Part shown: positions 7,694 through 9,923 of the stretch, piece by piece
Numbering within the stretch: position 1 is the stretch's first letter
Layout of the letters: each line of letters opens with the position of its first letter
Notes under the pieces: model-generated
Told to the model about the DNA's origin: nothing
Databases searched by the model: none
What the model saw: only the letters and a program-made list of their open reading frames with translations
UHGV virus genome: UHGV-1430915
Strand: one strand, 5' to 3'
DNA length: 64,000 nt
Origin: a virus
Made by a program: the position numbers and the translations under genes

Positions 7694-9241
7694 TTAGATA
7701 AAACGCTTGAACATAGAAGGTGATGAGATTGATGGAATCACACAAGGCAGCGCTACCTCCTCTTTCTCCAGGAAATTAATCGCAGAAGCTACACAGTCGG
7801 CCCAGTCGTCTTTTCTGTTAAATGTTGATCTTTCCCCGTTGAACTTTTCAAGTTCAGTCAGAAATGCTTCCAGAGTGTCAGGATGGAAACTGGATTTTAC
7901 AATCCTCACCATTCCTTGTTGGGCAAGATTGGCAAAAGGTGAGAACCTTGTCAGTTTAGATTTGTTGGAAGGCATTGGATCTTCTTCAACCCTGAACCCT
8001 TCGGCGAGCAAGGATCTGGACGAGGTTAAGAATTCACTCTTACCTGCCTGACCGGGGTCCACAGAAAATACGATTATGCAATCATCTCCATCAAACTGCG
8101 CCTGTTTCCTGATGATCACATCTCGTTCCCCAGCCTTTTTACAGAACTTGCCTTCCAGACCTGTGGAATACCTACCGTCATCCACGTTCTCAGGACAATA
8201 ATCCCCGGACAGGTAATAAAAGCCGTCGCTATCTTTACTTACCTTAACACTGGCGGTAAAGTCAGGAAATTTATTACCGGAAGTTCTCTCGGTTCCTGCC
8301 TTATCCCATGCCCTGCAAGATACTGATCCAAGAGGTACTCTATCGGCATCCCGAAGGAAAGATCTTTGGAAATAGTTTGCACCTTCAGGTTTGGCAAACC
8401 AGTTGCCATGAAGAAGCTGGGCTTTTTCAAGCTCGGGCAGACCTTCAAGGAAAGCAAGGTATTCTGGGTTGTCTCTCAAGCAGACAGGATTATCGAAAAT
8501 TGTTGCGCCTATAAACGAGAATGACAACGGTCTTGGCTTGATCTCCACACCCAGTCCGTTAACCGTGGTGTATTTCTCTATTAACTCCTCTTTAGAGTCT
8601 CCCCAGATAAACTCACCGTCGCGTCGGATAAAATATCTTTTCTTACCACATTTCTCCGGGTCTGGATACCCTTCATCGTCCAACCACCACCTAACCAGTT
8701 TGGCAAGCATGTGTTCTGAGTCTGGGTTACAGCTGATAACCATTCTTGATGGATACTTTGACTGAGATCGCAGACGAGACATCAAATAGTCTATCTGCTC
8801 CCATTCGAATTGCGTGCCTTCATCGAAGCAAACCATGGTGTACTCAAGGCCTTGATGGTTAAGCTTATCTTGGACATACTCCATGTGGCAGTATTTTACA
8901 ACGGCCCCTTTTTTGCTCCTGTCCCACTTGCCAGTGCTCGGATCAAACCGTGGAAAAATAAACTTATGATCCTTCTCTCTGAACTTTGGTTTAATGTTTT
9001 CAGGCAGATCACTGTAAATAGCTACTGCTTTAGGCCATAGACCACCCTCACCTTCCAACTGTGGAGTTGTTCTTCGGAACATAACCACAGAGCTGTGCGG
9101 GTCATCAATAATTTTAAGCGGCATTAGCTGCAAGAGGAACGACTTGCCAGACCCAGCTGCACCTCCGATCACCAAAATATCTGCATCGTTCTCTAGGATC
9201 ATCTTCTGCTTTTCAGAACACGGTCCGTAAATCTTAGACAT
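7694..9241 (-). CDS. terminase large subunit
   Basis: Walker A VIGGAAGSGKS near N-terminus, Walker B-like MVCFDEGTQ, C-terminal acidic nuclease-like region; 515 aa. Confidence 0.85.
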   Translation of the reverse strand: MSKIYGPCSEKQKMILENDADILVIGGAAGSGKSFLLQLMPLKIIDDPHSSVVMFRRTTPQLEGEGGLWPKAVAIYSDLPENIKPKFREKDHKFIFPRFDPSTGKWDRSKKGAVVKYCHMEYVQDKLNHQGLEYTMVCFDEGTQFEWEQIDYLMSRLRSQSKYPSRMVISCNPDSEHMLAKLVRWWLDDEGYPDPEKCGKKRYFIRRDGEFIWGDSKEELIEKYTTVNGLGVEIKPRPLSFSFIGATIFDNPVCLRDNPEYLAFLEGLPELEKAQLLHGNWFAKPEGANYFQRSFLRDADRVPLGSVSCRAWDKAGTERTSGNKFPDFTASVKVSKDSDGFYYLSGDYCPENVDDGRYSTGLEGKFCKKAGERDVIIRKQAQFDGDDCIIVFSVDPGQAGKSEFLTSSRSLLAEGFRVEEDPMPSNKSKLTRFSPFANLAQQGMVRIVKSSFHPDTLEAFLTELEKFNGERSTFNRKDDWADCVASAINFLEKEEVALPCVIPSISSPSMFKRFI

Positions 9242-9528
9242 TAACCTCTCTCCTTTGGAAACAGTGTTCTTATATAGTCTTGCAAAATGATCAATTTAGC
9301 TCTATCATTACTACAAGACAGGTTATTATCCCTCATAATGCCAGAATTCACCGCATCTGGCGCACCTTTCTTCAAAGGGATAGCTTTAGCAGGTGGTTTC
9401 ATAGCACCCTCGGGAGGTTTAACAATCAACCTTCCTACATCCGGAGGGTCAATCTTGTATTCTCTCTCAACGCTGGTTGCACACCCACACAATAACAAGC
9501 ACAAAACAACCAGTGCAGTAACTCTCAT
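9241..9528 (-). CDS. o-spanin (Rz1-like outer-membrane lipoprotein)
   Basis: signal peptide with lipobox-like LLLCGCA, Pro-rich mature region, C-terminal ERG as in lambda Rz1; ATGA overlap with preceding i-spanin; stop overlaps terminase start. Confidence 0.6.
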   Translation of the reverse strand: MRVTALVVLCLLLCGCATSVEREYKIDPPDVGRLIVKPPEGAMKPPAKAIPLKKGAPDAVNSGIMRDNNLSCSNDRAKLIILQDYIRTLFPKERG

Positions 9529-9923
9529 CGAACCTCCTGATTGATACTCTCATTATAAATATCTATTAGCTGATCAGGAAGTGTTGACTTCTTACCTTCA
9601 GGAGATTGGAGGTAGATAATCTGCTTTTCTTTACCTGCCTTCTCAGCCATATTTAATTTATCCTGTAGATCAGAAAGAGATTTTTCAAGGTTTTTAACCT
9701 CCTCTGCGTGGCCCATTTTAATTTTGTCGGCCTGCTTTTGTTGTTGGTCAAGGATCCGTTCCCACTTTAACTCTGTTGCTGACACACCTTCTTGATAAGC
9801 ATCATTGAGCTTAGAGTTAAACCAATACACGGCCCCAAGATAAGCCATGCCTATAGCCGCTGCAAAAACTAAACCTTTTATGATCCCTCTGTGTTTACTC
9901 ATCAATGTTAAAACTGAAATCAT
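9525..9923 (-). CDS. i-spanin (Rz-like)
   Basis: N-terminal transmembrane segment then charged coiled-coil region; immediately followed by lipoprotein gene. Confidence 0.55.
   Translation of the reverse strand: MISVLTLMSKHRGIIKGLVFAAAIGMAYLGAVYWFNSKLNDAYQEGVSATELKWERILDQQQKQADKIKMGHAEEVKNLEKSLSDLQDKLNMAEKAGKEKQIIYLQSPEGKKSTLPDQLIDIYNESINQEVR

Follow-up and report, generated by a model that had tools for sequence, protein, structure and literature searches.

Scattered lysis genes in an rV5-like phage genome: a spanin pair 5′ of the large terminase gene and a remote lambda-R-type endolysin

How is host lysis provided for in a phage genome where two spanin-like genes lie immediately 5′ of the gene for the large terminase subunit, and the endolysin gene is placed 10 kb away on the opposite strand? 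This is the arrangement found in the virus genome UHGV-1430915, of which we have analyzed a stretch of 64,000 nucleotides (the window). The window shares 99.3% identity with genomes already published for Vequintavirus (rV5, FV3, Murica and ECP26 relatives), and in the records of these relatives the two spanins and the endolysin had all been annotated before. The genes concerned are as follows.

9525..9923, minus strand: predicted i-spanin of 132 aa, homologue of rV5 ORF67, with an N-terminal TMD, a long periplasmic helix, a linker and a short C-terminal helix
9241..9528, minus strand: predicted o-spanin of 95 aa, homologue of rV5 ORF66, an outer-membrane lipoprotein precursor with a lipobox and a proline-rich mature domain
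7694..9241, minus strand: large terminase subunit (TerL), an uninterrupted ORF of 515 aa, the start of which overlaps the o-spanin stop
19983..20453, plus strand: cytoplasmic lambda-R-type endolysin of 156 aa, homologue of rV5 ORF89 and LysECP26, without a signal or SAR segment

The lysis genes at 9241-9923 and 19983-20453 very probably make up the standard set of a Vequintavirus, that is an rV5-like myophage of E. coli. The first-pass annotation had described them as scattered, and all its coordinates and sequence features were verified. The scattered layout is real, but it is already in print for rV5-type phages. It is common to the subfamily by inheritance and has parallels in T7 and T4, and is no oddity of this genome. 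The main import of the analysis is annotation hygiene, since the linkage of the spanins to the terminase, the distant position of the endolysin and the lack of an identified holin have all been published for the group.

Within the i-spanin a hydropathy scan finds a single hydrophobic segment, N-terminal at residues 14-32 (Kyte-Doolittle 1.94), with no second one; K10, R12 and K16 are the basic residues N-terminal to it. A single-sequence AlphaFold model of moderate confidence (mean pLDDT 72.7) has a helix at residues 3-99, a disordered section at 100-114 and a further helix at 115-131, giving the two helical periplasmic segments and linker that are required of i-spanins. The C-terminus carries a DIYNES motif that is conserved in four genera. 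The protein matches phrog_4297 'Rz-like spanin' with E=1.4e-48, and the o-spanin matches phrog_1267, also 'Rz-like spanin', with E=4.3e-22, both values lying well outside what chance would give. Homologues of the former are named I-spanin in the records of ECP2303, Murica and LL12, and the O-spanin label is attached to homologues of the latter in many records, the o-spanin family being present in 192.

The N-terminus of the o-spanin reads MRVTALVVLCLLLCGC followed by ATS. In the precursor, MRVTALVVLCLLLCG is followed by C16-A-T, with the lipobox L-C-G-C16 and alanine at the +2 position. G15-C16 is invariant across four genera (the window and homologues from three others), and the +2 residue in the four is A, R, E or A and never D, as expected for sorting to the outer membrane. 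KPP and P..PL motifs are also conserved among the homologues.

The order of the genes is i-spanin and then o-spanin, and the ORFs overlap by 4 nt, with the ATGA junction read directly in the sequence. They are thus not embedded, and no ORF with a lipobox is embedded within 9525-9923. The rv5 spanin families are listed in the 'Separated' class of two-component spanins (Kongari 2018, PMC6139136). The prediction that these are two-component spanins is supported by the topology signals and the gene arrangement; we found no genetic test of Vequintavirinae spanins in the published literature.

The pair had been called Rz/Rz1-like. This is apt insofar as the proteins are functional analogues that share predicted topology and domain plan with lambda Rz and Rz1, but they are not sequence relatives. 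In BLASTP comparisons the i-spanin aligns with Rz at E=0.61 and the o-spanin with Rz1 at E=0.001, the latter match covering no more than the signal, the lipobox and the stretch rich in proline. Lambda Rz1 is moreover embedded in Rz, and on grounds of both homology and embedding the window spanins lie outside the lambda Rz/Rz1 sequence family. The C-terminal ERG of the o-spanin, likewise remarked upon in the first-pass annotation, is indeed present and common to lambda Rz1, but it is no sign of kinship. The o-spanin homologues of other genera end in ...PKK, ...PQK or ...DEK, and the likeness to Rz1 is therefore a coincidence. This non-conservation rules out ERG as a mark of Rz1 homology.

By sequence similarity the product of 19983-20453 is a soluble enzyme of the lambda R type, of the transglycosylase class. 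Over 149 residues it shares 63% identity with lambda R (E=1e-67), and it matches the lambda lysozyme structure 1AM7 (E=3e-56) with alignment of the SEGT motif containing the catalytic glutamate (AYSEGTDNGRQ compared with AWSEGTDNGRQ) and phrog_90 endolysin. The alignment with lambda R begins at residue 4-6, leaving no N-terminal extension, and there is no hydrophobic segment in the hydropathy scan. With neither a signal nor a SAR domain, the enzyme is hence expected to depend upon a holin. LysECP26, also of 156 aa and from a phage that is 98.6% identical, has been purified and was muralytic in vitro on outer-membrane-permeabilized cells (PMC9728275). The gene sits within a divergently transcribed DNA-metabolism unit, flanked upstream by DNA ligase and downstream by a 68-aa ORF at 20517-20723. 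The latter has no match to a lysis family. No recognizable holin lies beside the endolysin, in agreement with the first reading of the sequence.

According to the established three-step model of lysis by phages of Gram-negative hosts, a holin would permeabilize the inner membrane at a set moment. The cytoplasmic endolysin would then escape and degrade the peptidoglycan, whereupon the spanin complex, which by then spans the periplasm, would be released from restraint and fuse the inner membrane with the outer one. We have sought a holin-endolysin-spanin cassette elsewhere in the genome, using the annotation of NHEP1 and rV5 together with hydropathy scans, and found none. The ~73 kb of NHEP1 (~99% identical) that lie beyond the counterpart of the window carry no annotated lysis cassette, and neither do rV5 1-50 kb and 58-106 kb. 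The scan also revealed none in NHEP1 64-101 kb or in rV5 1-50 kb, the rV5 region being taken as the equivalent of NHEP1 100-137 kb. It is plausible that the spanins have a timing separate from that of the endolysin, a situation known in T7 and T4; our search of the published literature found no Vequintavirus transcriptome.

Which protein could serve as the holin? Two small membrane ORFs in the window had been named as candidates, and both exist.

42287..42523, plus strand: the rV5 ORF129 homologue, 78 aa long, which has two TMDs and ends in a basic tail; a published putative holin
20517..20723, plus strand: 68-aa protein, homologue of rV5 ORF90, in the family phrog_4641 that has no assigned function; a weak candidate for a lysis regulator

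For rV5, ORF129 was put forward as a holin encoded away from the lysin gene, 'as in T4' (Kropinski 2013, PMC3606486). The hydropathy scan gives two hydrophobic segments for the 78-aa protein, with Kyte-Doolittle values of 2.79 and 2.51. Its C-terminal tail is HKNIRKEKKESRDGYRT, and the basic character is retained across variants, in which the loop and TMD2 are invariant and TMD1 is variable. The protein is therefore small, with TMDs and a basic C-terminus as expected for a holin, but it lacks both membership of a holin family and linkage to lysis genes. No match to a holin family rises above noise in Pfam or NCBIfam and there is none in the PHROGs, where it falls into phrog_10061, a family without assigned function. 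The gene is separated from the endolysin by 22 kb and from the spanins by 32 kb, amid small ORFs that have no assigned function. Homologues occur in Vequintavirus only, and are absent from sister genera that have the same spanins. A search of 5.8 billion proteins placed them in 26 clusters, none of them named ('hypothetical' at most), and provided no informative foreign context for guilt by association. Later annotators of LL12, Gotham and KPP-1 have not positively identified a holin, and in the case of LL12 phage-lysis specialists refrained from calling one (PMC6658697). We regard the 78-aa protein as a tentative candidate from within the window, possibly but not probably the holin.

The real holin might instead be rV5 ORF29 or ORF31, which lie beyond the window in the late operon of the tail fibre genes, although we consider this rather unlikely. 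ORF29 has 88 aa, with two weakly hydrophobic segments and a tail of mixed charge, and ORF31 has 104 aa, with an N-terminal TMD and a helical tail giving weak matches of the coiled-coil type. Small ORFs were scanned for hydropathy in the window at 1-9.9 kb (threshold 1.6) and in rV5 at 13.5-50 kb, and apart from these two and the spanins, no small ORF of the scanned minus-strand structural block has candidate membrane segments. ORF29 surfaced only after the threshold had been reduced to 1.0, however, its segments having Kyte-Doolittle values of about 1.0. Both families are widespread. ORF29 (phrog_1322) is found in 369 phage records across Vequintavirinae, Phapecoctavirus and Aeromonas phages, and ORF31 (phrog_5345) in 224 records across Vequintavirinae, a range like that of the o-spanin. 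In one GenBank record, that of BME3, the ORF29 homologue bears the label 'membrane protein-holin'. The position is also suggestive, as the T7 holin gene comes after the tail fibre gene, and T4 gene t does likewise. Against this, neither protein matches any holin family of Pfam, NCBIfam or PHROG. The ORF29 homologue of a distant Aeromonas phage is found with tail fibre and baseplate genes and not with lysis genes, and the synteny with tail genes would be just as compatible with a role in the tail or in exclusion. For ORF31 the hints of lysis are limited to sub-threshold XhlA/haemolysin matches of a kind typical of coiled-coil bias. If one of the two were the holin, the layout would be T7-like, with the holin by the tail fibre, the spanins before TerL and the endolysin among DNA-metabolism genes. 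It is conceivable, though rather unlikely, that rV5-like phages and the wider Vequintavirinae and Phapecoctavirus have a holin of an unrecognized family, for which ORF29 or ORF31 would be the leading candidates and not ORF129. Several hundred genomes of therapeutic-candidate phages would then be without a correct holin annotation.

It is improbable that the 68-aa protein acts in lysis, whether as a small holin of class-III type or as a periplasmic antiholin or regulator resembling T4 RI. It adjoins the endolysin, it has its own strong sigma70-like promoter at 20457-20485 (P90 in the rV5 annotation) and it is 95-100% conserved inside the genus. The lone N-terminal hydrophobic segment, rich in Ala, Gly and Cys, is followed by a C-terminal domain of ~45 aa whose two Cys residues would suit the periplasm, and the genome encodes rIIA and rIIB homologues. 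However, there is no similarity to any lysis family in Pfam, PHROG or NCBIfam, and a promoter of sigma70 type suggests early or middle expression. In ABPH49, a member of Vequintavirinae outside the genus, the homologue keeps its place in the same ligase-to-exonuclease stretch with no endolysin adjoining, and the adjacency to the endolysin therefore looks incidental. The search for the lysis-timing protein of rV5-like phages is thus narrowed to four small membrane proteins, two within the window and two outside. These phages are in wide use in E. coli biocontrol and therapy cocktails.

We turn to the connection of the spanins with DNA packaging. TerL matches phrog_979 'terminase large subunit' with E=1.7e-208, and one base is common to the o-spanin stop and the TerL start (TAATG), confirming the overlap reported earlier. 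The first-pass annotation considered spanins beside packaging genes to be unusual. This is unsupported, because the same order occurs in other genera, in published phages and in T7. The order i-spanin, o-spanin, TerL, portal is kept in Seunavirus, Mydovirus and Henunavirus (4MG, KpS8 and pEp_SNUABM_01 were checked). In rV5, PVP-SE1 and CB7 the spanins adjoin TerL and are not part of a lysis cassette, an arrangement described for SP6 and VP4 too (Buttimer 2020, PMC7344957). In T7 the late genes run 17 (tail fibre), 17.5 (holin), 18 (TerS), 18.5/18.7 (spanins) and 19 (TerL). That the ORFs at 9241-9923 are packaging accessory proteins, for example an unrecognized small terminase, is scarcely credible: a small terminase is annotated in none of these genomes, overlapping stop and start codons couple the ORFs to TerL and T7 TerS lies directly upstream of the T7 spanins, but an N-terminal TMD and then an invariant lipobox Cys in the next protein are defining spanin signals not expected of a DNA-binding TerS, and both proteins belong to spanin families of PHROG and are listed in the curated census of spanins.

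The two genes are thus best read as spanins, and T7 resembles the window in having a spanin pair immediately 5′ of TerL. The T7 lysozyme gene 3.5 is far from the spanins, among replication genes, like the endolysin of the window; it encodes an amidase, however, unlike the lambda-R-type enzyme found here. The T7 o-spanin gene is embedded in that of the i-spanin, whereas the window pair overlaps by 4 nt, and T7 has a recognized holin and TerS beside the spanins where the window has neither annotated. The lambda S-R-Rz/Rz1 cassette includes a close homologue of the window endolysin in R, but in the window 10 kb separate the endolysin from the spanins, which are on the other strand, and no S-like holin is present. 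T4 (e, t, pseT.3/pseT.2, rI, rIII; rIIA/rIIB) is, like the window phage, a large virulent myophage with unlinked endolysin and holin, and separated spanins, and rIIA and rIIB homologues are present in the window phage type. The T4 spanins are not known to adjoin the terminase genes of T4, whereas those of the window lie next to TerL. We found here no homologue of RI or of the T-like holin of T4 (about 218 aa, one TMD and a large periplasmic domain). The same analogy with T4 was made by the rV5 authors (PMC3606486).

rV5 itself carries the same lysis genes, with order and strands unchanged (PMC3606486, PMC6139136, PMC7344957). The o-spanin proteins are 93.7% identical and those of ORF129 85.9%, and synteny extends to the endolysin, ORF90 and the tRNA cluster. 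TerL of rV5 is assembled from three segments about an HNH endonuclease, whereas that of the window is one uninterrupted ORF; the differences are otherwise strain-level substitutions only.

Two further features lie upstream of the spanins.

9942..9974, minus strand: hairpin resembling an intrinsic terminator, CCCCGUUAGCU-GUAU-AGCUGCGGGG followed by U6, from sequence and fold
10346..11157, minus strand: seven clustered tRNA genes that precede the terminator and the spanins; their sigma70-like promoter lies at 11244-11216

The hairpin and U6 tract end 18 nt upstream of the i-spanin ATG, and the 77-nt stretch around the hairpin folds as a whole to -21.1 kcal/mol. A consensus terminator scanner missed it because the stem has a bulge, but an equivalent terminator is annotated in Murica. 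There is no promoter between the terminator and the i-spanin, the gap of 18 nt being too short to hold one. The earlier view that the spanins lead the terminase operon is thus sustained in their joining to TerL by overlapping codons, and qualified by the strong terminator placed just before the i-spanin. Transcription of the spanins would therefore come by read-through from upstream or start at an unrecognized promoter. A P(tRNA) promoter is annotated in rV5. Inspecting the upstream regions by eye, we saw no apparent late-promoter motif shared by late genes. The sole type seen upstream of late genes is the sigma70-like extended -10 promoter, which is found before the portal gene and before a 156-aa ORF at 978-1448.

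The dispersal of the lysis genes, with a spanin pair directly before the large terminase (TerL) gene and the endolysin 10 kb away, is confirmed, and on rechecking the ORFs and their junctions all coordinates in the first-pass annotation stand; the interpretation it offered is partly supported. The arrangement restates published facts for rV5-like phages and is thus already known, from Kropinski et al. 2013, Kongari et al. 2018, Buttimer et al., and the statements on holins for LL12, Gotham and KPP-1. The holin is the one lysis part for which there are only candidates.

The 6-kb stretch around the spanin genes shares 99.3% identity with the Escherichia phages ECP2303, ECP2309 and NHEP1, and 96-99% with many further Vequintavirus genomes, among them ECP26, FV3 and Murica. 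In these records the two ORFs appear as I-spanin/O-spanin or 'Rz-like spanin', with 'terminase large subunit' next. By GC skew the window falls into three blocks, which agree with the units of transcription that PMC3606486 proposes for rV5. The blocks and the lysis features are:

1-15 kb, minus strand: structural, packaging and tRNA genes
15-52 kb, plus strand: nucleotide and DNA metabolism genes, with many small ORFs
52-64 kb, minus strand: second minus-strand block, from GC skew
9942-9974, minus strand: intrinsic terminator, an 11-pair stem with one bulge, then U6
9525-9923, minus strand: i-spanin, 132 aa (phrog_4297, 'Rz-like spanin', 1.4e-48)
9241-9528, minus strand: o-spanin, 95 aa (phrog_1267, 'Rz-like spanin', 4.3e-22)
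19983-20453, plus strand: endolysin, 63% identical to lambda R

The i-spanin has a single N-terminal hydrophobic segment. Its AlphaFold model, made from the single sequence, comprises a helix from 3 to 99, then a linker without structure and a short helix at the C-terminus, and so modelled the protein fits the plan expected of an i-spanin. The signal peptide of the o-spanin ends L-C-G-C16, with Ala at +2, and the G-C pair is invariant among the Seunavirus, Mydovirus and Henunavirus homologues. The description of the pair as Rz/Rz1-like holds for function and topology but not for sequence, there being no significant similarity to lambda Rz or Rz1. The C-terminal ERG had been taken as a lambda-Rz1-like sign, and lambda Rz1 does end ...SERG, but the o-spanins of the sister genera end ...PKK, ...PQK and ...DEK, and the common ERG is therefore ascribed to chance. 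Both rV5 spanin families were placed in the 'separated' class by Kongari et al. 2018 (PMC6139136).

[quoted passage not shown] Only 18 nt separate the terminator from the i-spanin ATG, including the GGAG ribosome-binding site, leaving no room for a promoter between them; the Murica annotation carries the same terminator in this position. The nearest same-strand sigma70-like promoter lies at 11244-11216, upstream of the tRNA cluster, and is P(tRNA) in rV5. The spanins and TerL may thus be made by terminator read-through or from an unrecognised promoter. The gap between TerL and portal (7623-7690, minus strand) contains a further sigma70-like promoter, of the extended -10 type (TTGCCA-17-TGgTAGAAT). 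Directly after it comes a hairpin like that of a terminator, and next the portal gene begins. A promoter ahead of such a hairpin is odd; the arrangement recalls an attenuator or a 5' hairpin that stabilises RNA.

TerL (7694-9241, minus strand) is one unbroken ORF of 515 aa, whereas in rV5 it is assembled from three segments and contains an HNH endonuclease gene, and in LL12 it is reported to be intron-split. This genome therefore lacks insertions of the rV5/LL12 type. The layout had been called unusual, but the order i-spanin, o-spanin, TerL, portal recurs in 4MG, KpS8 and pEp_SNUABM_01 (Seunavirus, Mydovirus and Henunavirus), and the annotated order in T7 is tail fibre, holin, TerS, spanins, TerL. 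Placement of spanins beside packaging genes is thus old and recurrent. Buttimer et al. (PMC7344957) describe it for rV5, PVP-SE1 and CB7, whose spanins adjoin the large terminase and are not part of a lysis cassette, as in SP6 and VP4. No small terminase is annotated in the relatives of the window or in the genomes compared from the three sister genera. In those genera a gene for a protein of 474-485 aa without assigned function (phrog_16176; L006:631-2055, L007:547-2004 and L008:604-2061 in the respective loci) overlaps the i-spanin start; the window has there an 89-aa ORF (10030-10299, phrog_8729) and then the terminator. Within the tRNA cluster lies a 99-nt tRNA-like gene (10590-10688, minus strand), to which ARAGORN gives a four-base anticodon (atcc) and no amino acid, and which scores 35.5 bits against the Rfam tRNA model, barely over threshold. 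It is 'tRNA-OTHER, Asp|Gly' in Murica and unannotated in rV5; it may be a tRNA with an intron, one resembling a frameshift suppressor, or a degenerate one.

The lambda-R-like endolysin on the opposite strand is borne out by its match to lambda lysozyme 1AM7 (E=3e-56), in which the catalytic SEGT motifs line up, and it lacks a hydrophobic leader. Its rV5 homologue, ORF89, was named lysin by Kropinski et al. 2013 (PMC3606486), and the purified 156-aa endolysin of ECP26, a 98.6% identical phage, is active (PMC9728275). About 70 nt before its start, in the 124-nt gap following the DNA ligase gene, is a perfect 9-bp inverted repeat (19884-19914, plus strand; GCCAATTGA ... TCAATTGGC, 11-nt loop) that may be a regulatory hairpin or operator.

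With these lysis parts present, we infer a pathway by analogy with the established model of holin, endolysin and spanin action. The inner membrane would be opened by a holin, giving the soluble lambda-R-type enzyme access to the murein, which it would degrade, and the pre-assembled i-spanin/o-spanin bridge would then fuse both membranes. Lysis timing would be set by the holin and not by the position of the spanin genes.

For LL12 and Gotham (genome announcements) and KPP-1, it was reported that a holin could not be identified. Judging by the relatives NHEP1 and rV5, the rest of the genome holds no canonical lysis cassette. Both small membrane ORFs proposed earlier are present in the window, and two more candidates lie in the late tail-fibre operon of the rV5 stretch (L004):

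42287-42523, plus strand: ORF129 homologue, 78 aa, two transmembrane segments
20517-20723, plus strand: ORF90 homologue, 68 aa
L004:20937-21203, minus strand: rV5 ORF29, 88 aa (phrog_1322)
L004:22348-22662, minus strand: rV5 ORF31, 104 aa (phrog_5345), N-terminal transmembrane segment and helical tail

ORF129 is the leading candidate, though less likely than not to be the holin. Kropinski et al. 2013 proposed it as a holin lying away from the lysin, by comparison with T4. Physically, its homologue bears the marks of a class II holin, but it matches no holin family in Pfam, PHROG or NCBIfam. It is found in Vequintavirus only (116 phage records; 26 clusters in a large protein set), with identity within the genus from 58% to 100%, the loop and second transmembrane segment being invariant and the first variable. 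The 'virion structural protein' family assignment (phrog_7821) of a gene 0.4 kb downstream hints that this part of the plus-strand unit may be expressed late. That gene (42925-43386, plus strand; rV5 ORF133), otherwise among small ORFs without assigned function, encodes 153 aa with a C-terminal transmembrane segment.

That ORF29 or ORF31 is the holin is less likely still. Their conservation reaches well outside the genus (369 and 224 records, respectively): both are kept across Vequintavirinae, and ORF29 also in Phapecoctavirus and Aeromonas phages. One Phapecoctavirus record calls the ORF29 homologue 'membrane protein-holin'; neither protein matches a holin family. The Aeromonas homologue of ORF29 still lies with tail genes, a context compatible with a T7/T4-like holin position or with a tail-related role. 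ORF90 is improbable. It has one Ala/Gly/Cys-rich hydrophobic segment, a two-Cys C-terminal domain and its own preceding sigma70-like promoter, and the ABPH49 homologue keeps the ligase-to-exonuclease context with no endolysin beside it, so adjacency to the endolysin seems incidental. The remaining probability falls to something else.

In each search some 16-21 of the GenBank records matching this E. coli Vequintavirus are named 'Campylobacter phage' (MG0656xx, host C. jejuni). Most of them are unannotated. Across the candidate genes their DNA identity is 88-95%, and protein identity for ORF31, ORF29 and ORF90 reaches 99-100%; the C. jejuni host labels look doubtful.

A second peptidoglycan hydrolase of 166 aa lies outside the window, at L002:24720-25220 (minus strand) in the NHEP1 stretch (NHEP1 88719-89219), and is ORF2 in rV5 (L004:1980-2480). 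It matches Pfam Hydrolase_2 (SleB-like, E=2e-19) and has a classical N-terminal signal peptide. A Sec-exported hydrolase does not require a holin. The stop of the 166-aa gene overlaps the rIIA start; DNA polymerase, helicase and rIIB are encoded in the same block, and the same SleB-like enzyme is reported for PVP-SE1, BME3 and CB7.
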